NCBI GenBank assembly: GCA_976551045.1
Contig: CDPCPM010000180.1
Span: 8,618,001-8,682,000 of the forward strand
DNA: 64,000 bases
Reading direction: 5' to 3'
Source of the DNA: Glaucostegus cemiculus
Lineage: Eukaryota
How positions within the stretch are numbered: the stretch's first letter is position 1; each line of letters begins with the position of its first letter. Under the pieces are notes generated by a model. The model made no database searches. It was not told the DNA's origin and saw only the letters and a list, made by a program, of their open reading frames with translations. This document shows positions 16,506-50,267 of this stretch, one piece after another. The translations under genes and the position numbers were made by a program.

Positions 16506-18089
16506 CTTTAATGCTCAAGGTGCTGCCTGAGGATGAGCAAGGAGGTACACATAATACAAATTTGTAGCAGGTAATCCAAAGACTTGGCTCCTTCCCCAGA
16601 TGTGTGTCCAGCCCTTGTATTATTCATGCCCATTGATAAATCCTTTGTCAATGTGTATTTTATGGAGAGGATGATTTTAGGAAAGTAGACCATTCCACTT
16701 TCTGATATTCAACTTCCAACAGACTTGTCTCCACTCCCATCTGTAGGGCCATGGTTCTTGAGAGTTTCCACAACCTCCGCCAGTCCTGCAAGAGCTCTGT
16801 GCACCTTCGATTCTGACTAGGATTAGTGGCTGTAACTGCAGCAGCCTGCTAACTGAGACACAAGTCGCCTCAATAACTGTTCCACCCTCCAGAAACCAAA
16901 TATCTGGATTTTGCAGAGAGCAAACTTGCGCTGTGTCCCATGACAAGAACAAGAGTGGAACTCAAACTGCTCACATCCCCTCTGCCACTTGGGATCTGAA
17001 AAATAAGTAAAGTTGTCACTGAAGTCAGGTTTGGAGACATTGGTCTCCAAATCTTGGGTCATGGTTAGGGGATTCCTAACCAGCATTTGTAGGTACATTG
17101 GGTGAGGTGTGAGGTAACTGGGCTTCTGTAACTCTGCATCTCCCACAACACTTAATAAAGGTTTCAGAACTCTGCACTTCTAACATAAGTAGCAAAAATC
17201 TGTATTTTTACCTTTCAATACATTGTTCCACATTGGATTTAATGGCTGTAATATTTGATTTTAATTCTGGTTCATTTTTCTGCTCAGCTTTACTTTTGCA
17301 TCGCACTTATTGGGATGGTAGAGGATGTACTCTGCCAACGTTCTGAAGATTCCTGGATTGTTCAGAATCCTTAGAAATAAATGCTGAAAAGGCATTCTGC
17401 TAGAATGAAGAAGGGTGGGAGGAGGAAGAGGCTTTTGTCTATCTAAATGTTTCCAACCTCAAATGAGAATGATCAACAAACATCCTATCTCTGATATGTA
17501 CTTCAAAATGTGCACATTTTCAAATCATAAGAACTATACATATTATTCTTTGATCCCTTCATCTCCTTTAACTACAAGATTATGTTGTTGCAGTATAATA
17601 AAGAGACATAACCATAGCAGATAGTTGCAGATCTGATGTAATGACTTAAAAAGAGTTTGGTTAATCAAAGGAAACTGAAATAATGCTAGCTCTCCTTATT
17701 CTACATTAATAAATAAACATCAAGGCCCTGAAGTTCTAAGGAAACTCTAACAATCTCCAAACATATCAAGTGAGAGACTGCCAGAAAGTTCAGCAAAATA
17801 GCAGGATGACAGTAATTGCCTGTCAATAGCAAGTTAGATTGCCTCAAGTCCTGTTCACCAAAAACCCCTATCTTCGCTAACCGACACTGACTCCCTGAAA
17901 GGCAATATGCCTAGTTTAAAACTCTGAACTTGTTTTCAAAGCCCTCTATTCCCTTTCTATTTTTGCAGTCCAAAAGAGATTTACCAGGCTAATTCCTGGT
18001 ATGAGAGGGTTGTCCTGACAAGAGGGGCCAGACAGCTTGAGTCTGTATTCTTTGTAGTTAAGAAGAATGAGGGTGCCCTTATTCAAACA

Positions 18090-32620: not shown

Positions 32621-35600
32621 ATCAGAATCAGAATCAGAATCAGTTTTTATTGTCACAACCATATACATACATAGTATGCATAGGAGCGAGATACCGTCCT
32701 CCTCAGGTGCTCGTCCCATTAAATAACATAACAACTAACAGAGACACACATACACACTTGACAGAATAAACATTACAAAACATTAGACATTAAAAGCTAC
32801 GGAAGTTAAAATTAAATTAGTACGCAGATTAAATTAAAAATGGCCAGTAAATAAATAAATAGTTATTAAAGTGAACGGACTGGTGTCGGGCATTTAAAGT
32901 GCTGGTGCATTTCTGTGCACCTAGCATCTCTTAGTGTTAACAAAGGAAGATGGAGGGATGAGAGAGTTTGCAGTTCTGATGGCTTGCGGAAAGAAGCTAT
33001 TGTTCAGCCTGGTCGTTCTTGCCCTGACACATTTAAGCCTCCTCCCTGATGGCAAAATTGTAAAGAGGTGGTGGGAGGGGTGAGAAGGGTCGGCCATTAT
33101 GCTTTTGGTCTTCCTCACACAACGGTCTTTGTATATGTCTGCGAGGGATGGAAGCGAGACACCTATGATCCACTCTGCAGCCCTAACTATCTTCTGGAGG
33201 GACTTCCGCCCAGCAGCTGAGCAGCTTCCAAACCAAACAGTGATACATTGAGTTAGGATGCTCTCAATGGTCCCCCTATAGAAGGTTTTCATGACGGAGG
33301 GATGGGGGTACGCTTTCCTCAGTCTCTGCAGGAAGTAGAGGCGTTTCTGAGCTTTCTTCGTGAGGGCCGTAATGTTAGTGGACCAGGTCAGGTCGTCGGT
33401 GATGTGCACCCCCAGGAACTTGGTGCTGCGTACTTGTTCCACAGCAGACCCGTTGATGGTCAGTGGGGCGTGCACACGGTGACCCCTCCTAAAATCCACT
33501 ATTATCTCCTTGGTTTTATCCACATTCAAGGAGAGGTTGTTGTCATGGCACCACACGGCTAGTTGTTTCACCTCCTCTCTGTAGTCCGACTCATCGTCAT
33601 TCGTGACAAGACCCACCACTGTCGTGTCATCGGCAAATTTAACAATGCGGTTGGAGCTGGATCTGGCCTCACAGTCGTGAGTCAACAAGGTGAACAGGAG
33701 CGGACTGAGCACACAACCCTGTGGGGAGCCAGTGCTCAGTGTGATGGTGTTTGAGGTGTTTTCACCAATTTTGACTGACTGCGGCCTGCAAGTTAGAAAA
33801 TCCAGTATCCAGTTGCAGAGAGGAGAGTTAATGCCCAGAGCGCTCAACTTCCTGATTAGCTGTTGCGGGATGATGGTATTGAAAGCGGAGCTGAAGTCGA
33901 TGAATAGCAGCCGGCAGTATGAGTCCTTCTTCTCTAAGTGATATAGTGCAGAGTGCATGGCAGAGAAGACTGCATCATTGGTGGATCTGTTTGCCCGATA
34001 AGCATACTGATGAGGATCCAAGGATGAGGGGAGGGAGGCTCTAATGTGCTTCATAACTAGCCTCTCAAAGCATTTCATGACAATCGGTGTTAGAGCTATG
34101 GGACGGTAGTCATTCAGACACATTGGAGGTGACTTCTTAGGAACAGGTATGATGGTGGTAGATTTTAGGCACTTAGGAACAACAGCCTGCTGTAGGGAGA
34201 TGTTGAAGATGTCAGCCAGTACATCTTTAAGCTGGTCCGCACAGTCCCTAAGTATCCGCCCCGGTATGTTATCCGGTCCCGCAGCCTTTCGAGGGTTAAC
34301 CTGTAAAAGGGCTTTCCCCACACTGGTTGGGGTGAGTCTCAAAGCCTGTTCTTTTGGCGAAGGCTGGGCTTTTGAGGCAGGTGTATTGTTCATAGCCTCA
34401 AACCTTGCATAAAATTCATTCAACTGGTCTGGTAGTGATGAGTCACCATCACAAACCTGGGGTGGAGCTTTGTAGTCAGTGATGACCTGGATTCCCTTCC
34501 ACAGGCGCCTCGCATCCCTGTCGTTGGTGAAATTATTATTTATATTTTCTGCGTATTGTCGTTTTGCCTTTTTAATACCCCAAGACAGATCTTTCCTTGC
34601 AGACTTCAGAGCTTCCTCATCCCTCGCCCTGAAAGCTGCATCTCTGGTACGTAGCAGACAGCGAACCTCCCCAGTCATCCAGGGCTTCTGATTTGCCCTC
34701 ACTGTAATCACTTTGTCCACAGTTACATCTTCAGTGCACTTTCTGATGTAGCATAGTACAGAGTCTGTATACTCTTGGATATCAATGTGGTTGTCCTGAG
34801 TGGCTGCCTCTTTGAAGGTGTTCCAGTCTGTAGTTTCCAGGCAATCCTGTAGGGCTAAGACTTTTCCTTCAGGCCAAACCCGAGTCAGTATCTTGACTGG
34901 TTTGTCCAGTTTCACCCCAGGTCTATATGCAGGCTTCAGCAGAATGGAGATGTGATCCGATGAGCCCAGGTGAGGGAGGGGGGATACTCTGTATGCCTCC
35001 TTCACACTGGTGTAAACCTTATCCAGTGTATTATTCTCTCTGGTCGCAAAGTTTATGTGTTGGTGAAACTTAGGCAGGACTGCCTTTAGATCTGTGTGGT
35101 TGAATTCCCCCAATACGATGAAGAATGCATCAGGATGAGCGGTCTGTTGTTTACTGATGGCATCATATAATTCGTTCAGTGTCTCTCTAGCATTGGCACT
35201 GGGAGGGATGTACACCATCCCCATTATAATACTTGTGAAGTCCCTTGGCAGATAGTATGGCCGACACTTTAAGAACAGAGACTCCACTATAGCTGAGCAA
35301 TGCTTATAGACAACCACAGCATCCTGGCACCATGCCTTGTTGATGTATACACAGAGACCACCCCCTCGCGTTTTGCCAGAAAGTGATGCTGTCCTGTCAG
35401 CTCTGTGAAGGGAGAGGCCGTCCAACTGTATGGCTGTGTCCGGAATGTTCTCGTTCAGCCACGTCTCTGTAAAAACCAGGGCACAGCAATCCCTCACCTC
35501 CCGCCGAGTAGTCCTCTGTAATCTCAGCTGGTCCAGTTGCTTGTGCAGTGAGCGGATATTTGCCAACAGAATAGATGGTACAGCCGATCGATGAGGGTTA

Positions 35601-35903
35601 GCCTTCAGCCTAACCCCGATGCCCCCACGCTTGCCACGCTTCCGGGCTCTCTCGCACCACCTCCGGCGCCTTCTCCCTACCTCCTTAGACACTGACGAGT
35701 CCAAGGTCTGTGCTGGACAACGCCAAAGCCCAAGCAGCCTTAACAGTTCCACAGGGACACCTCTGTTACAGGTCTTCCAATGAATCACTGATCTTCCCAC
35801 ATTCATCAAAAACTGTCGACTGTACCTCAGCCCTGAAGTTCCACAGTCAGCCAGCCCGGTTGTTCCGCTTTGGTACCCACGACCCCGGACACCTCCTTGT
35901 CCG
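32621..35903 (-). mobile_element. Rex1/Babar-clade LINE, near full-length, young
   Basis: Single long APE+RT ORF, 3' UTR ending gtgacaataaaaa followed by a (GATTCT)n tail; inserted in a CR1 3' UTR. Confidence 0.93.
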
Positions 35904-35947
35904 GAAGGCAGGAGAATAAGGTTGAGAGGGAAAAATAAATCAGCCAT
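32921..35947 (-). CDS. Rex1/Babar APE endonuclease-reverse transcriptase ORF (1008 aa as called; first ~15 aa derive from flanking CR1)
   Basis: Motifs [25 protein letters not shown] (normally GDFN), LDKVY, SDH; RT motifs [47 protein letters not shown]. No stops. Confidence 0.9.
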
Positions 35948-36977
35948 GATTGAATGGTAGAACAGACTTGATGGGTCGAATGGCCTAATTCTGCTCCTAT
36001 GTTTTATGGAAATACTGCTTCAAACAGGGTACAAAGGGATTGTGCTTTTTATAGGAATCTGGCGATCTGCTGGAGTGCTCTTTTTTATGATTCTCACAAT
36101 TATTTGTGAACAGCAATTACACTATTTCTATCAATAAATTGTTATGATTCTCATTGTTCTGTTGGTATTTTCTCAGCTTTGGAATGAGAAAGCTTAACAA
36201 CAGAATCAAATAAACTGGGAGGAATTTGGTCTGGATTACAAGAATATTTTATTTAAAGTCTTGTGTTGTTCTATTGCTTATGTACATATATAATGCTGTG
36301 AGACTTAACCAGTATAATAAAAAATAAGGTCTTAAGCTGCTTAAGAAAGCAGCACACGTGTGCTTATGTAGATATGTAACATAGTCTTAAATTTGATTCT
36401 TATTCTTACATTGAAAGTGGGCATTGTTGCAAAGGACAGCATTGAATGTCCACCTCTAATTTCCCTTGAGAAGTGGATGTGAGCTGCCTTCCTGAATTGC
36501 TGCTGTTCTTGGGTTGAAGGTATTCCCACAGTACAGTTGTTAGAATCTTCTTGACACAATAATGATATATTTTTAAACAGCATGCTGCCTGACTTTGAGG
36601 GGAACACGGGTGGTTTTCCTAAGTGCCTCTATAGATCCAGAAAAAGAATAGCTGGCGTTCTAATCTGGTTATTGCTAATGGGGAAAGTTATGTAAAGTAT
36701 TGTTGATAAAATGAATTGTAATAATACTAGTCCCATATTAATGTCATGGGCCTGTCACACAATGCGATTGGTCTAAAATAGTATAATAAAAATTTGATTC
36801 ACAGTTCAGCTGCCCAATAATTCATTGGAAAACAATTAAATGTGATTAGACATGTGCAATTTTTTCAGACAAAGATTGTAAATCCCTGTGGAATAATGGC
36901 TATGTAAGCACTTTGGCATTGCACCGGAAACATCCCTGTAACAGTTGTAGCTATTGATGTGTTTTTGCCAGACTTAC

Positions 36978-37689: not shown

Positions 37690-38676
37690 AATCAGAATCA
37701 GAATCAGTTTTATTGTCACAACCACATACATACAAAGTATGCAGAGGAGCGATATACCGTCCTCCTCAGGTGCTCGTCCCATACAAAAATAACATAACAA
37801 CCAACAGAGAGACACATACACACTTGGCAGAATGCATAGTACAGATCATTACACCTTAAAAGCTAAGGGGATTGAACTTAAATTCAGGATCAATTTATCG
37901 ATTTTCACTTACACGTATACATGTGCAAAAGACATCAAAGACAATAAAGGACACCTGGACAAAAACATCAAAACATTAACAGCCCCCCTGCCTCACCCCG
38001 CACCGACGACCACCTCCAACCCCCTCCAACCCCCGCAGTCCTACAACCTCAGGGCCCACAGACCATCAACAACCTCCGGCCCCGCAGTCCGACCACCTCC
38101 GGCCCCTTCGCCTCCGGCCCCGCAGGCCGACGACCCCCGGCTCCTTCGCCTCCGGCCCCGCAGGCCGACGACCCCCGGCTCCTTCGCCTCCGACTCCGCA
38201 GTCCGACGACCTCCGGCCCCGAATTCCGGCCTCGCAGTCCGACGACCTCCGGCCCCGAATTCCGGCCTCGCAGTCCGACGGCCTCCGGCCCCGAATTCCG
38301 GCCTCGCAGTCCGACGGCCTCCGGCCCCGAATTCCGGCCTCGCAGTCCGACGGCCTCCGGCCCGAATTCCGACTCCGCAGTCCGACGACCTCAAGCCCCG
38401 CAGGCCGACCACCTCCGGCCCGAGCAGCCCCCTCACCACCCGCATCCCGACGCCACCACGAGGCTCCCGGGCCTTCAAGACGCTGCCGCCTCCGATGAGC
38501 TCCGACGAGCCGTCGGAGCCGACAGTACCGACAACGACTCCATAAAACGGCACACAAACATCAAGAACAAAGAACACACAAGAAAAAAACACAGAAAAAC
38601 ACTAGAAGACTAACAAAAAAAGACAAGGACTACAGACCTGGGAGAGGCCGCTGCAACCAGGTGCGCCGCCATCTTA
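37690..38676 (-). mobile_element. Non-autonomous Rex1-derived retroelement with internal GC-rich VNTR
   Basis: The 3' ~145 bp and (GATTCT)n tail are highly similar to the Rex1 3' end at 32621-32770; the 5' end starts AAGATGGCGGCG; no RT remnant seen; the middle is a tandem array. Confidence 0.8.
38070..38430 (+). repeat. CpG-rich minisatellite (36-bp unit x4 plus partial; related 38-bp unit x2)
   Basis: Unit cgcagtccgacggcctccggccccgaattccggcct repeated near-perfectly; upstream unit cttcgcctccggccccgcaggccgacgacccccggctc. Confidence 0.95.
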
Positions 38677-39259
38677 AGTCAACAACATGTTTTAGTAGTT
38701 CTCCATGTCTCTTTCTGATTCATTGTATTCCTGGCACCACACATTGTAAGACATAAGGACCTGCATTTATGTTACAAATTCATGATAGCTATAGGACATA
38801 TGAACCACCACGTGAAAATAAAATGGGTGTTTGTGTCAGGCAATGAGATTTAACTATGAGCTGACAACACTTGTGACCACAGTGGAAGTTCGAAATATTG
38901 GCAGCACTTCTGGGAGCAGCAGTAAACCCTGAGTCCCAATTAAAAAGTGTGGGCATGCAGGTGAATACAGACCATAATTCCATGTAAGATTTGGCTTGAA
39001 AGGCTCTGGGGCAAATGCTTTGGGTAAACACTAGCATGATTCTTGTGGAGAAGAGCAAAGGTACACAAAATCATACAAATAGTGGAGCAAATTTAGGTCT
39101 ATATATACTGCAATTAGAGAACTCCAACAGCTCAATGAAGGGAAATCACATTAAGAAACATTGCAATTAGTTTAATGAGTCACAGGGTGCAATCATTAAG
39201 CTAAATAGACAGTGAGGTGGCAGGAAACTTTACATGTTGTGGTGTGACATTAGCTTTGA

Positions 39260-43990: not shown

Positions 43991-46205
43991 CTTACACATA
44001 TCACCAGAACCACAGTAAAGGAATCCTTATCTCACATTATTTAAAATAATGTGTTTTATTTGAATTATATCTTGAAAATAGAACAGAATTAAGCTTACAA
44101 AAAAAAAGATGAATGTTCATTCTAACTGAGGCAGGAAAGAAAGAAATTGTATTATCCACCTGGGCCTGGGTTTATGCCTTTGTAACAAGCAGGAGCAGGA
44201 AATAAGGCACTTCTTTATCTGTCTCCTTTAGCATGTTCTGTAAAATCTGCCTGTTCTAATGGAGCTTTTGGTTACCTGTTTGAAAGTACCACATTTTATC
44301 TGCTCTTGCAAAGCACCTTAGGGTTTTGTAGTACTATGTGGTGCTATATAAATGCAAATTCCTGCTAAGAAATAAAAAGAAGGCAAAAGACTGTGAATGC
44401 ATTTGATTTTAATTTATATTGTGACAACTGCAAAAAAAGCAAAACAAAACACTTTTGAGAGTGGAAAATTGAAATGACATTAGTAAATGCAGGAAATACT
44501 CTGCAAACCAGATGGCTCCTGTGAAAAGATAAATAGTTTTGTAGGGGAGCTGGACCCCCTGACAAAGTTTGCAAAATAAGGCTGCAGTGTGGGTTTGCAG
44601 AGACAGGAAAGAGGAGGGGTCAAAGGCTGGTAACCACAAAAAGGTGGTATTGTGGACACATAAAGAACATGGATCAGGAGGATATTGCAGAATGTACAGT
44701 ACTTCAGGTTGTGGTGTATGTGTGTGGGAGAAGGCAGGGAAGGTACACAATTGATGGGGTTTTTGGGAGTGGGAGCCTGGTAGAGTTCAGAGGGGGAGAG
44801 ATAATTTCTTTGAAGGACAGGAAGGTGCAGGGCAAATACTCCCATTTCTACTGGCCTGTATGTAGTATTGGAAAAGGCCATATCTGTCACAATGTTGATT
44901 GAAGAGCAAGCTCACAGAGAACCCAAATGCAGCACACTGGTACAAGACTGGAGTCAGGATACTTCCTCAGGACCAAACACAGGCAGCAACTGGAAGGAAA
45001 TCTTGCCTCAGGGATCTGAGTAGTAATCCTAACACAAACTGAATCTTCAAGCAGGAATAGAAAACACAGGACTGCTCTGGAATAGACCATTCTAAGCAGC
45101 TAGGAGCCAACATATACTTGAAGGTTGACCAATCCTCTGGCCACTAGTGCTAGAGAAACCCAGGTACTTATGCTAGGTCCTTGATGGGGCTCAGGTGTGT
45201 GTCATTATGCAATCAGTCCAGGATGGAATCCATGTGCTGTACAATGAGGCATCTAAGGAACAAAATCAAGGGCCAGTACTCAGAATCATGACAATAACTG
45301 ATGAAAGGATTCTTATTATGGAGTTTAACTTTTACCCTGCACCTCCCCCACAACCCTCAGCTGTATTAGATTCTTCTCTTTCATTAGAGTTTTACACTCC
45401 CTTAAATAGCGGCTTTGTAACATTGTCATTAGTGCTATCCTGTAGCCTGTTCATTATTCCGAATTCCAAGTGTCTTGTTTAAAATAACAACTAATGCAAA
45501 ACTGTTAATAAGTTAAAGACACTGATCTCAGCTTTACTGTTGCTCTGGAGTTGTGTCACTGCTTTGTGCATAGAAGCAGTTGTGAAGTGTTAAATTTATA
45601 ATCTGCCTGCTTATTTGTGGTGCGATGGAATGTATCTGTTCCATGCCAGAAGTGGGGCCAATGGTAATATTAATCTGTCACATATGACATTGCCGTATAA
45701 TTGAATGTAATTTAAACATCAAATCAACATTACTCATGCTGGGTTATGTTACGCTCCACTGAATCACCTACGAGTAATGTATTTGCAAAAATTTGCATTA
45801 AATTAAAATGGTACACATGAACTCCTGACTGATGAATATAAACACTGGTCTGCATGTTGGTTTATGTAATTTATTACTTGGTCCTTCTACACCGCAGACC
45901 ATGTGCTACTCCATTTAAGCAACATTCAATTGAAGCCATTGCCTGATAGCTGCTTGGTAAAATGGAATTTAAGAATTGCACATTATGTAGAAATGCTGTT
46001 GCATGAAAGAGTAGAGAAAGAAAGATATTTTTTTCAATAGTACCTTTCATAACCTCTAAATGCCCTTTTTTCCAAATGTAAAATTGGAAATATATCAGCA
46101 AGGTCTCACAAACAGAGGTGGTAAGAACATAGAACATAGAACAATACAGTACAGAACAGGCCCTTCGGCCCATCAAGCTGTGCCATCCTACAAACATCTC
46201 CCATA

Positions 46206-49200
46206 CTAACTCTTTCCACCCTCATATCCTACTATTCCACATTCTTCCATGTGCTTATCTAACAATCTCTTAAACCTGTCCAATGTATCTGCCTCCACTA
46301 CCACCCCAGGCAGTGCATTCCATGCACCAAGCACTCTCTGGGTGAAAAACTTCCCTCTGACATCTCCCCTATACTTTCCACCAATTATCTTAAAGGCATG
46401 CCCTCTCGTCTTGAGCATCTGCGCTCTGGGAAAGAGGCGCTGACTATTAACTCTATCTATTCCTCTCAATACCTTAGACACCTCTATCAAGTCCCCTCTC
46501 ATCCTCCTCCTCTCTAATGAGTAGAGCCCTAGCACCTTAAGCCTCTCTTTATATTCCATACCCTCCAATCCAGGCATCATCATGGTAAATCGCCTCTGCA
46601 CCCTCTCCAACGCCTCCACATCCTTCCTATAATGCAGCGACCAGAACTGAACACAATATTCCAAGTGCGGCCTAACTAGAGTTTTGTAAAGCAGCATCAT
46701 CACCTCTCTGCTCTTGAACTCAATCCCTTTATTTATAAAAGCCAACATCCCATAAGCCTTCTTAACAGCCCTATCCACCTGCGAGGCAACTTTGAGTGAA
46801 CTGTGGATATGAACCCCCAGGTCCCTCTGCTCCTCTACACTGCCAAGAACCTTGCCATTTACCTTATACTCTGTCCTGGAGTTTGTCCTCCCAAAGTGCA
46901 CCACCTCACACTTCTCTGGATTAAACTCCATCTGCCACCTGTCAGCCCGGTTCTGCATCCCATCAATATCCCCCTGTAAGCTCCTACAGTCCTCCACACT
47001 ATCTACCACACCACCGATCTTGGTGTCATCTGCAAACTTACCAACCCATCCCTCCACTCCTTCATCTAAATCATCTATGAATATAACAAAGAGTAGAGGC
47101 CCCAGAACCGATCCCTGCGGGACTCCACTAGTCACAGCCCTCCAATCCGAGGGCACTCCCTCCACCACAACCCTCTGCCTTCTACAGGAAAGCCAATTTC
47201 TTATCCACACAGCCAACCTCCCCTGGATACCTCGACCTCTGATCTTGTGAAGAAGCCTGCCTTGATGAACCTTATCGAACTCCTTACTAAAATCCATGTA
47301 CACTACACCCACCGCCCTGCCCTCATCAAGCTTCCTCGTCACCTCCTCAAAGAACTCTATCAGGCTCGTGAGGCAAGATCTTTTTTTCACAAAGCCATGC
47401 TGACTGTCCCTAATCAGTTCATGACTCTCCAAGTACTCATAGATCCTATCCCTCAAAATCCTTTCCAACAGCTTACCTACCACAGACGTGAGACTCACCG
47501 GTCTGTAATTTCCCAGACTATCTCTACTGCCCTTCTTAAACAAGGGAACAACATTCGCTACCCGCCAATCTTCCGGCACCATCCCCGTGGACAACGAGGA
47601 CTCAAAGATCCTCACCAGCAGATCAACAATCTCCTCCCTCGCCTCCCGAAGCAGCCTGGGGAATATTCCATCGGGCCCCGGAGACTTATCAGTCTTGATA
47701 TTACTTAACAATTTCATCACCTCCTCCCTCTCTATAGCTACATACTCAAGAACATTACCCTTGTCAGCACTCACCGTCACATCATCAAGGCCCCTCTCCT
47801 TGGTGAATACAGAGGAGAAGTATTCATTTAGTACCTCCCCTACCTCTGCTGCCTCCAGGCACATCCTCCCACCTTTGTCCTTAATAGGACCTACCTTTAC
47901 CCTAGTCATCCTTCTGCCCTTCACATAAGAGAAAAAAGCCTTGGGATTTTCCTTAACCCTACGAGCCAACATCTTTTCATGTCCCCTTCTAGCTTTCCTC
48001 AGCTCTTTCTTAAGTTCCCTTCTCACTATACTATACTCCTCACGGGCCACATCAGAGCCTTGCCGCTTACACCTTACGTAAGCCTCCTTCTTCCTCCTAA
48101 CCAGTCTTTCCACCTCTCTTGTCACCCACGGTTCCTTCACTATTCCATTCTTCCTCCGTCTTGCCGGAACATATTTGTCCCCAACATCCTGTAAAACATC
48201 CCTGAACAACGTCCACATCTCTACAGTACACATTCCCTCAAAAAGGACTTCCCAATTTACACTCCCAAGTTCTTTCCTTATAGCCTCATAGTCTGCCCTA
48301 CCCCAATTGAATATCTTCCTATGCTCCCTGCACCTATGTCTGTCCATGACAATTCTAAAGCTTATCGAGGAATGATCACTGTCTCCCAGAGGCTCACCCA
48401 CTAGTAGATCTCTCACCTGTCCCAGTTCATTTCCTAAAACCAGATCCAACACAGCATTCCCTCTAGTCGGTTTGTCAACATACTGCTCCAGAAATCTATC
48501 CTGGACACACTTAACAAACTCATTCCCATCCAAGCCTCTGGCACTGAGCATGTCCCAGTCTACATTCGGGAAGTTGAAATCACCCATTATTACAACTCTA
48601 TTATCTTTGCTTCTGTCCAAGCACTGCCTGCCAATCTGCTCCTCTATATCCCTACTGCTACCTGGGGGCCTATAGTATACTCCCAGCAGCGTAACCACAC
48701 TTTTCCTATTCCTCACTTCCACCCACACCGACTCGAAAGAGGATCCTTCCGCAAACTCAGCCCTTTCCGCAGCTGTAACATCATCCCTGACCAATATTGC
48801 CACCCCTCCTCCTCTTCTCCCCCCTTCCCTATCCTTTTTAAAACACTGAAAACCAGGAATGTTCAATACCCACTCCTGCCCTGACGACAGCCATGTCTCA
48901 GTTATGGCTACAATATCATAATCCCCCATATTTATCCAAGCTCTCAATTCATCACCCTTATTCCTAACACTTCTTGCATTAAAGTAAACACACTTTAGTC
49001 CATCCACTTTAACCCTTTTATAGCCTTCATTCTGCCTCTCCCTCCCCAAAGCCTCACCACCTGCTCGATGCAACTCCTCTCCATCTTCACTACACGTCGA
49101 CTTGATCCTGCATACCTCCTCCTCTAAGCCAAGTTGGTTTCCTTTGCCTTGCCTGTTTAGTTTATCCACCTTTTTACTATTACTGCCTGTACACTGCTTC

Positions 49201-49307
49201 TCCTTCCTCAAAGCAACTCTATCTGTCAGATCTGCCTTTTCTGTAATCCCTACATCCTCTGACCAGCCTTCCTGGTTCCCAACCCCCATCCCAACTAGTT
49301 TAAACAC
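46206..49307 (-). CDS. CR1 ORF2: APE endonuclease + reverse transcriptase (1033 aa, uninterrupted)
   Basis: FNARS, ITETWL, YYRPP, GDFN, LDLVL, SDH; KSPGPDG, NYRPVSLTS, QHGF, YMDFSKEFD, PQGSVLGP, KFADD, DLGV. The called start is GTG; first ATG at codon 7. Confidence 0.95.
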   Translation of the reverse strand: MFKLVGMGVGNQEGWSEDVGITEKADLTDRVALRKEKQCTGSNSKKVDKLNRQGKGNQLGLEEEVCRIKSTCSEDGEELHRAGGEALGRERQNEGYKRVKVDGLKCVYFNARSVRNKGDELRAWINMGDYDIVAITETWLSSGQEWVLNIPGFQCFKKDREGGRRGGGVAILVRDDVTAAERAEFAEGSSFESVWVEVRNRKSVVTLLGVYYRPPGSSRDIEEQIGRQCLDRSKDNRVVIMGDFNFPNVDWDMLSARGLDGNEFVKCVQDRFLEQYVDKPTRGNAVLDLVLGNELGQVRDLLVGEPLGDSDHSSISFRIVMDRHRCREHRKIFNWGRADYEAIRKELGSVNWEVLFEGMCTVEMWTLFRDVLQDVGDKYVPARRRKNGIVKEPWVTREVERLVRRKKEAYVRCKRQGSDVAREEYSIVRRELKKELRKARRGHEKMLARRVKENPKAFFSYVKGRRMTRVKVGPIKDKGGRMCLEAAEVGEVLNEYFSSVFTKERGLDDVTVSADKGNVLEYVAIEREEVMKLLSNIKTDKSPGPDGIFPRLLREAREEIVDLLVRIFESSLSTGMVPEDWRVANVVPLFKKGSRDSLGNYRPVSLTSVVGKLLERILRDRIYEYLESHELIRDSQHGFVKKRSCLTSLIEFFEEVTRKLDEGRAVGVVYMDFSKEFDKVHQGRLLHKIRGRGIQGRLAVWIRNWLSCRRQRVVVEGVPSDWRAVTSGVPQGSVLGPLLFVIFIDDLDEGVEGWVGKFADDTKIGGVVDSVEDCRSLQGDIDGMQNRADRWQMEFNPEKCEVVHFGRTNSRTEYKVNGKVLGSVEEQRDLGVHIHSSLKVASQVDRAVKKAYGMLAFINKGIEFKSREVMMLLYKTLVRPHLEYCVQFWSLHYRKDVEALERVQRRFTMMMPGLEGMEYKERLKVLGLYSLERRRMRGDLIEVSKVLRGIDRVNSQRLFPRAQMLKTRGHAFKIIGGKYRGDVRGKFFTQRVLGAWNALPGVVVEADTLDRFKRLLDKHMEECGIVGYEGGKS

Positions 49308-50267
49308 TCATCAACCAACCAAGCATACCGTGCTGCCAGGATATTTGCCCCCCCACCGGTTGGGGTGTAACCAGTCCTCGCTGTACAGGTTCCACCTTCC
49401 CCAGAAGAGATCCCAATTACCCAAAAATCGAAATCCCTCTACACTGCACCACTCTCTCAGCCACGTATTTAACTGCCACCTCTCCCTGTTCCTAACTTTC
49501 CTATCACGTGGCACCGGGGGTAATCCAGAGATTACTACCCTTGAGGTCCTGGTCTTCAGCTTTCTGCCTAGCTCCCTGAACTCCCTTTGCAGGACCTCAT
49601 CCCTCTTTCTACCTATGTCGTTGGTACCAACATGAACCACGACTACTGGCTGCTCTCCCTCCTGCTTGAGAATCCTGGGAACCCGATCAGTAATATCCTG
49701 GACCCTGGCACCAGGGAGGCAACATACCCGGTATTCATGATCACTTCCACAGAATCTCCTATCTGTTTCCCTGACTATCGAGTCTCCTATCACCACTGCA
49801 TTACTCTTCACCTTCTTCCCCATCTGAGCAGTAGTACTGGTCATGGTGCCAGTGACCTGGGTACTAGTGCTTGGTCCCTGCAGGCTATCCCCCTCTACAG
49901 TTTCCAAAGTTGAAAACCTGTTACTGAGGGGAACAGCCCCCGGGGTGTCCTGCTCTACCCGCCTGTCTGCCTTCTTCTTCCTCTTCTCTCCCCTGACAGT
50001 CACCATTCTGTCTGATACCTGAGCTACAGTAGAACCTGCTCTAAGGGGGGTGACTGTCTCCTGATGAACTGTATCTACATAGCTCTCTCCCTCCCGTATG
50101 CTGCGCAGTGTCTGCAGCTGCGACTCCAGCTCAACAACTCTGAGCCGAAGTTCCTCCAGCCACACACACTTGCTGCAGATGTAGTCAGTGTGGACCGCAG
50201 TACGGTTCACGACCTCCCACGTCAAGCAGCTGCAGCATACGAGCCTGTCCTCCCCCTGACTGTCCAT
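49295..50267 (-). CDS. CR1 ORF1: Cys-rich zinc finger/leucine zipper + SGNH esterase domain (one extra G near the C-terminus)
   Basis: ATG at 50267; CCSC...CSKC, LEELRLRVVELESQL, GDSIVR, VHVGTNDIG, DWLHPN. As assembled it stops at 49311; removing one G from the G7 run (49348-49354) restores WGANILAARYAWLVDECLN* ending at 49295. Confidence 0.88.

Follow-up and report, generated by a model that had tools for sequence, protein, structure and literature searches.

A conserved recoding-like signal at the ORF1-ORF2 junction of esterase-type CR1 retrotransposons and its predicted role in -1 ribosomal frameshifting

Introduction

How the second open reading frame (ORF2) of non-LTR retrotransposons is translated has been called an open question (PMC3894237). 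Mammalian L1 and silkworm SART1 share with CR1 a bicistronic LINE RNA and low ORF2 output. The ORFs of L1 are separated by a spacer and its ORF2 initiation is thought to be AUG-independent (PMC5009743), and those of SART1 are coupled by an overlapping UAAUG together with a downstream structure (PMC3894237). Both L1 and SART1 yield a free ORF2p, whereas the layout of CR1 predicts a fusion. Frameshifting does have precedent in non-LTR elements, since ORF2 of the APE-type Dictyostelium elements TRE5-A and TRE3-A lies in the -1 frame, as in CR1, and is stated in a review to require a -1 frameshift (PMC5911963), and since the ORFs of the APE-type Drosophila element R1B likewise overlap with a -1 shift (PMC2718515). 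These elements differ from CR1 in belonging to other clades and in having other ORF1 types, and the consulted sections of the two papers mention no G-run for them.

Viral systems provide the closest parallels at the nucleotide level. The coronavirus IBV shifts frame between ORF1a and ORF1b at U_UUA_AAC, a heptamer that ranks with the most shift-prone (PMC5009743); CR1 carries the identical heptamer, in the same phase and with the -1 frame leading to the polymerase. CR1 differs from IBV in that it has no common downstream pseudoknot or hairpin, in that the stop codon abuts the heptamer, and in being a cellular retrotransposon. In PRRSV, nsp1beta/PCBP trans-activates the nsp2 frameshift at CCCANCUCC, a motif that lies 11 nt 3' of the slippery site and imitates a structured stimulator once protein is bound (PMC5009743). 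CR1 resembles it in having a short low-complexity motif, a G-run at +11, although the CR1 motif is G-rich and that of PRRSV C-rich, and we draw this parallel from the spacing alone. Frameshifting stimulated by G-quadruplexes has been reported in synthetic constructs (PMC5009743) and for HDAC1 (PMC12809536).

CR1-group elements are the dominant retrotransposons in most vertebrates (PMC13343379). Canonical vertebrate CR1 elements have a type IVB ORF1 (zf/lz plus esterase), with the same domain order as the element described here and with homologues of it (PMC4120745, PMC13343379). The parts consulted of PMC13343379, PMC3905857 and PMC4120745 contain no mention of frameshifting and leave ORF2 translation unaddressed. 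No published proposal of CR1 frameshifting was found in titles and abstract openings; the 1997-2003 descriptions of chicken and turtle CR1, in which the ORF overlap or a shift may already be mentioned, lay outside this scope. Here we analyse the junction of a CR1 element from Glaucostegus cemiculus and compare it with other CR1 groups.

A young CR1 element and its ORF1-ORF2 junction

The window, a 64,000-nt stretch of the G. cemiculus genome, contains on its minus strand a young and nearly intact esterase-type CR1 LINE of a cartilaginous fish. Its features, in the direction of the element, are as follows.

49295..50267, minus strand: CR1 ORF1, with a zinc-finger-like N-terminus, a predicted coiled coil and an SGNH/GDSL esterase (PF13472, E 4.8e-15; N-terminal layout from alignment and from type IVB of PMC4120745)
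49298..49304, minus strand: T TTA AAC, the slippery heptamer, read in the ORF1 frame as X XXY YYZ (sequence and restored ORF1 frame)
49295..49297, minus strand: ORF1 stop TAG, immediately 3' of the heptamer; TAA in other families, rarely TGA (sequence and family comparison)
49288..49294, minus strand: 7-nt spacer from the stop to the G5 run, variable in sequence and fixed in length (family comparison)
49278..49287, minus strand: conserved G5-N2-G3 motif at +11 to +20 after the heptamer, a candidate 3' stimulator (family comparison, published consensus sequences and the metagenome locus L121)
49287..49289, minus strand: ATG specific to this family, replaced by GAG in its sister family; ORF2 frame, G at -3 and +4 (copy comparison)
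49267..49292, minus strand: four-tract G-quadruplex pattern of the window family, of which the fourth GGG is lost in the window copy (A at 49269) (copy comparison)
48987..49304, minus strand: open hydrophilic linker, 106 codons long in the -1 frame, leading up to the APE motif YFNARS (translation)
46206..49307, minus strand: ORF2 frame, APE endonuclease followed by reverse transcriptase, 1,033 codons from stop to stop (PF03372, E 4.5e-20; PF00078, E 2e-29)
46124..46205, minus strand: short 3' UTR ending in short TTCTA-type repeats, without poly(A) (sequence)

The element was labelled CR1 on the agreement of its junction and ORF1 end with published consensus rows named CR1. A short 3' UTR with terminal short repeats is a CR1 feature. 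Poly(A) is described as absent outside Zenon (PMC13343379). The nearest ORF1 homologues are from rays and sharks, and the esterase domain was also recognised in a second copy (L009; PF13472, E 8.7e-17). The family is young and abundant, with 1,864 candidate copies, 40 of which were scored, at 97-98% identity.

ORF1 of the window copy is broken by one surplus G within the G-run at 49348-49354, 50 nt upstream of the junction. However, ORF1 is open over 346 codons in 7 of 30 close copies; there it ends in E-C-L-N-stop and reads the heptamer as X XXY YYZ, and the phase that the first-pass annotation had restored across the break is therefore the true one. The exact 15-nt junction is kept in 28 of these 30 copies. 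Another copy (L002; G000:C19:23562614-23562963) has a 47-codon short upstream frame like that of the window copy and likely shares its G-run insertion.

The minus-strand junction reads as that annotation had described it, with the heptamer in phase just before the ORF1 stop, then the TAG, G-tracts (49292-49290, 49287-49283 and 49280-49278) and an ATG 5 nt past the TAG. The -1 frame, said to be the ORF2 frame with about 100 codons before APE, was found open for 1,033 codons, 106 of them ahead of YFNARS. As a gauge of chance, an in-phase X XXY YYZ site is present twice in the 1,032 ORF2 codons, and ORF1 has one only at its last position. The other TTTAAACTAG in the window, at 17920 on the minus strand, has neither a G-run at +11 nor a junction context.

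Conservation of the heptamer across CR1 groups

Since retention of the heptamer among 97%-identical copies says little, other CR1 families were sampled without using the junction. The esterase motif DGLHLN, used as the sampling pattern, gave 7,864 genome matches against 126 control matches, and 90 sites taken from 100 listed of the 7,864 represented 78 distinct loci. A match to TTTAAACTAR with at most two mismatches lay 67-81 nt downstream of DGLHLN in 70 of these 78 loci, 48 of which had the exact heptamer, and 8 loci had no match. Further loci were anchored on the APE motif, matched a divergent ORF1 query or came from one metagenome contig (L121); a junction match was present within 500 nt at 20 of 30 APE-anchored loci. 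Among related loci elsewhere, 13 metagenome matches gave a single CR1 (L121), 5 prokaryote matches were GDSL-like, and viral contigs gave none. Identical decayed CR1 copies recur at regular intervals along one contig (G000:C1; for example L038/L043/L058, L039/L046/L061 and L045/L060), an arrangement that suggests large tandem segmental duplications. Since these repeats inflate raw counts, loci were de-duplicated.

Hand sorting placed 119 of 121 distinct copies (L032 and L105 were left out) in 12 CR1 groups, 11 from the Glaucostegus genome and one from the metagenome contig. T-TTA-AAC was kept at the end of ORF1, as last codons NNT TTA AAC, in 12 of 12 groups, a count to which related groups contribute (pairs at 84-90% identity) and which the finding of junctions by fuzzy heptamer search favours. 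Counted by copy, the exact heptamer was present in 90 of 119. Conservation of the heptamer and its phase across CR1 families, which the first-pass annotation had named as a check on its reading, was thus found both between the groups and among the close copies of the window family.

The codons used at the junction were then compared with those used elsewhere. The residue preceding the terminal Leu is C, G, R, S, A or H, and the last base of its codon is T in every one of the 12 groups. The terminal Leu is likewise TTA throughout, a codon that accounts for 25 of 184 Leu codons upstream, and the terminal Asn is AAC throughout, which accounts for 39 of 76 upstream Asn codons. None of 8 other conserved Leu columns keeps a single codon, and only one of 24 other near-invariant columns overall does so; third positions between groups are 29-82% identical. 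A fixed NNT TTA AAC despite six different preceding residues and varied codons elsewhere points to constraint on the nucleotides themselves, with an extent that coincides exactly with the heptamer of X XXY YYZ.

Two deviations from the heptamer recur. Five decayed copies (L097, L098, L111, L115 and L103) share T TTA CAC, several of them with an offset linker, and are possibly a non-autonomous lineage mobilised in trans. Copies L068, L070, L089, L114 and L117 have G TTA AAC; in equine arteritis virus, G_UU(A) is a tolerated first-codon re-pairing (PMC5009743).

A G-rich motif at fixed distance from the heptamer

The stop codon is followed by seven variable bases and then by G at +11 to +15 and at +18 to +19/20 (G5-N2-G2/3), so that a conserved 3' element is present at fixed spacing. 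G occupies +11, +13, +14 and +15 in 12, 12, 11 and 11 of 12 groups, respectively, against a background of 33%, and is the majority base in 10-12 of the 12 groups at every position from +11 to +15. A run of at least four G starting at +11 was present in 69 of 121 copies. Genome-wide, in counts of copies and not of independent events, TTTAAACTAR-N7-GGGGG gave 9,987 matches, compared with 8 for the control and 62 for a 5-nt spacer, two bases shorter; variants with TGA or TGG instead of TAR gave 67 and 248 matches. A stop-less TGG subfamily would separate frameshifting from restart, and we considered the 248 matches as a candidate, but they were scattered over many families, a pattern that fits decay.

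The codon that ends with the G at +11 specifies Met, Gln, Leu, Glu or Lys, and the next one, at +12 to +14, encodes Gly as GGG. In two intact ORF2s, GGG is used for 27 of 91 and 21 of 75 glycines. The G motif therefore looks like an RNA-level signal, too.

A conserved hairpin or pseudoknot-like stimulator 5-9 nt downstream of the heptamer was not found by minimum free energy (MFE) scores or RNAalifold, with pseudoknots not explicitly modelled. MFE z-scores against shuffles ranged from -0.69 to +1.54 in 12 representatives, and RNAalifold on 16 representatives, with or without G-quadruplexes, returned no consensus fold. Two small hairpins had been suggested as stimulators in the window copy; they can be drawn, but are no stabler than shuffles (z = -0.30) and are not common to the families. 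A search for a long-range partner of the G-run in 15 elements placed the best duplexes at scattered sites, and a recurring site in the N-terminal region of the reverse transcriptase was rejected as weak and coding-constrained. L121 has almost no C nearby with which its G-run could pair.

A three-tier G-quadruplex pattern was present in 19 of the 27 window-family copies versus 2 of 92 copies in other groups, and a two-tier pattern was not general across groups. The local G4Hunter score, which reflects the G-run itself, was in the top 0-8% within each of 10 elements. The earlier proposal of a G-tract stimulator thus holds for the conserved G5-N2-G2/3 in its fixed register and fails for a general G-quadruplex, a pattern rare in other groups and without its fourth tract in the window copy itself.

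The CR1 G-run, short, unstructured and located about 11 nt 3' of the heptamer, matches the arrangement seen in PRRSV. In the absence of a shared fold, the G motif would most likely act through a bound protein, a reading by analogy to which we give somewhat less than an even chance. Action as a G-quadruplex together with further tracts is possible but less probable, and a similarly tentative standing is given to pairing of a kind not detected here. Protein binding is ranked slightly above the G-quadruplex on the agreement of the G-run spacing with that of the protein-bound PRRSV motif.

The ORF2 frame and the restart alternatives

The position of the APE motif was assessed over 13 groups, one of the 12 having been divided for the purpose. 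In 10 of them it was in the -1 frame relative to the heptamer; of the other three, one lacked a recognisable motif and two showed an offset, and in those two the better-preserved copies are -1 and open (L204, L206, L208; L166; L238). Of the 121 copies examined, many of them decayed, 82 had a recognisable APE motif, and 58 of these had it in the -1 frame. The linker from the heptamer to the APE motif was open in the -1 frame in 8 groups, with 0 stops over 33-114 codons, compared with up to 20 stops in the other frames. The linker gave pN/pS values of 0.60 (-1 frame) and 0.68 and 1.03 (other frames), which do not tell the frames apart; the value for APE was 0.48. One small subfamily (L217-L219; G000:C31, C65 and C310) has TGA after the heptamer, a G-run at +11 and a 114-codon linker with one common stop.

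Five of the 8 open-linker groups have no ATG before the APE motif, and a sixth has none until codon 48. These absences are compatible with the main rival reading, AUG-independent termination-reinitiation similar to that proposed for L1, in which ribosomes would restart near the ORF1 stop in the ORF2 frame while the G-run holds the 40S subunit. The near-constant retention of the stop right at the junction is also in its favour, as is the occurrence, in several groups, of CTG, TTG or GTG no more than six codons from the heptamer. However, there is no common start-like codon, since +9 to +11 is ATG, CAG, TTG, CTG, GAG or AAG and the first 12 codons of L121 contain no near-cognate codon. Nor does such a restart explain why three silent positions are fixed so as to form an in-phase X XXY YYZ site, or why ORF2 is constantly in the -1 frame. 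We consider it improbable.

The alternative offered by the first-pass annotation was that ribosomes stop and restart at the ATG 5 nt past the TAG; this would resemble the coupling described for SART1. Within the window family all 27 copies carry this ATG, in good context: each has G at -3, and +4 is also G. As a general mechanism it does not survive the comparison with other groups: besides the 5 open groups without an ATG, the sister family (L224, L232 and L242), whose linker is homologous, has GAG in its place, and L242 remains open for 102 codons without a Met. The ATG is thus a trait of one family and not the mechanism of the clade, and even in the window family it is very unlikely to be what makes ORF2p. 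That it serves there, and only there, as a second route beside the frameshift is doubtful, though less so.

Other taxa and published consensus sequences

Among CR1-type (HL-type) ORF1 homologues with the esterase end motif near the C-terminus, 55 of 63 end in Leu-Asn, and these come from sharks, rays, coelacanth, turtles, the frog Leptobrachium and the mormyrid Paramormyrops. All 17 HP-type proteins, which come mainly from teleosts and bichir and which we infer to be L2-clade (L2 esterases are described in PMC13343379), lack the Leu-Asn end. Two CR1 ORF1 homologues, P0009 and P0102, are deposited under a bacterium and a plant and are likely vertebrate contamination of those records.

We searched the first 400 letters of each consensus row in Supplementary Table 2 of PMC13343379 for TTTAAACTAR and obtained at least 20 matches. 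Seventeen of these were at ORF1 ends by reading, in rows from alligator, crocodile, chimaera, sawfish, stingray, catshark, dogfish, bowfin, bullfrog and coelacanth and in one row labelled Crack. A G5 exactly covering +11 to +15 was present in 6 of the 17 and was otherwise shifted or absent, in rows that are often gappy. Heptamer and stop together, with G5 at +11 in several cases, are shared by L121 and the published alligator, crocodile, chimaera and shark consensus sequences. The remaining matches among the 20 were two in the 5' region of Squalus CR1s and one in an AT-rich L2 row. In the supplement of PMC4316615 (without file 1), matches were found only near the ORF2 3' end, and the supplement of PMC8665684 gave none.

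In SquAca_CR1-3 and SquAca_CR1-18, the heptamer-plus-stop decamer precedes ORF1, in the 5' region, and no G5 follows at +11. This location, and the palindromic nature of TTTAAA, would suit a DNA or RNA signal unrelated to decoding (an internal promoter, splice acceptor, packaging signal or site of polymerase slippage), but such a signal has no need of ORF1 phase, an abutting stop or an open -1 linker, TAA in place of TAG in 4 of 12 groups leaves no conserved AG acceptor, and the other non-decoding explanation, a protein constraint on the terminal Leu-Asn, would fix neither TTA nor the preceding T, so that this whole class of explanations is highly improbable.

Proposed mechanism and implications

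By comparison of sequences, the CR1 junction is a real, conserved recoding-like signal. The silent-site conservation of the heptamer, the -1 position of ORF2 and the lack of a conserved ATG together lend strong comparative support to the main suggestion of the first-pass annotation, that a -1 frameshift joins ORF1 to ORF2. We consider it probable that CR1 ORF1 and ORF2 are fused by -1 programmed ribosomal frameshifting, resembling that of retroviruses, both in this element and in the other esterase-type families compared.

Under this proposal, most ribosomes would stop at the end of ORF1 and release ORF1p. A minority would pause with the Leu and Asn tRNAs on UUA AAC and re-pair on UUU AAA by tandem slippage; the pause would likely come from the abutting stop and from the G5-N2-G2/3 motif just outside the mRNA entry channel. 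Slipped ribosomes would then translate the hydrophilic linker of 33-114 codons into APE-RT, yielding a minor ORF1p-ORF2p fusion at a set ratio. As no protease domain was found in ORF1 or ORF2, ORF2p would be expected to stay uncleaved and tethered to the esterase.

Several observations count against the frameshift. The usual structured stimulator is missing, with no shared hairpin, pseudoknot-like fold, G-quadruplex or long-range partner found; the heptamer is replaced by T TTA CAC in one sampled subfamily and by G TTA AAC in some copies; and the two of 20 consensus matches in Squalus 5' regions are at a position where an ORF1/ORF2 shift is impossible. Among longer homologues, no natural single-ORF fusion of ORF1 and ORF2 was found, the 293 candidates yielding one unrelated chimeric gene model, which is weak evidence.

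A broader and more tentative proposal is that the esterase-type CR1s of jawed vertebrates have kept, over more than 400 million years, a -1 frameshift trans-activated by a protein that binds the unstructured G-run at +11, the G-rich counterpart of the PRRSV mechanism, together with an uncleaved esterase-APE-RT replicase that co-assembles with free ORF1p.

The 27-nt junction signal makes the question of ORF2 translation directly testable. If the frameshift reading is correct, the CR1 replicase begins at the ORF1 ATG, so that annotation of ORF2 from an internal Met would be wrong, and expression of CR1 ORF2 alone would miss the natural protein. The fusion would then offer a possible answer to the question of how esterase ORF1 proteins enter stable RNPs (raised in PMC3905857), and the G-run would represent a kind of natural, G-rich frameshift stimulator not described before.

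Other features of the window

Two further features were noted outside the CR1 element. A second LINE at 32921-36019 (minus strand), which we take to be Rex1-like, is an apparently intact, uninterrupted single ORF of 1,032 codons in which APE- and RT-like motifs can be seen by eye. A CpG-rich tandem repeat at about 37700-38700 yields several long repetitive ORFs.
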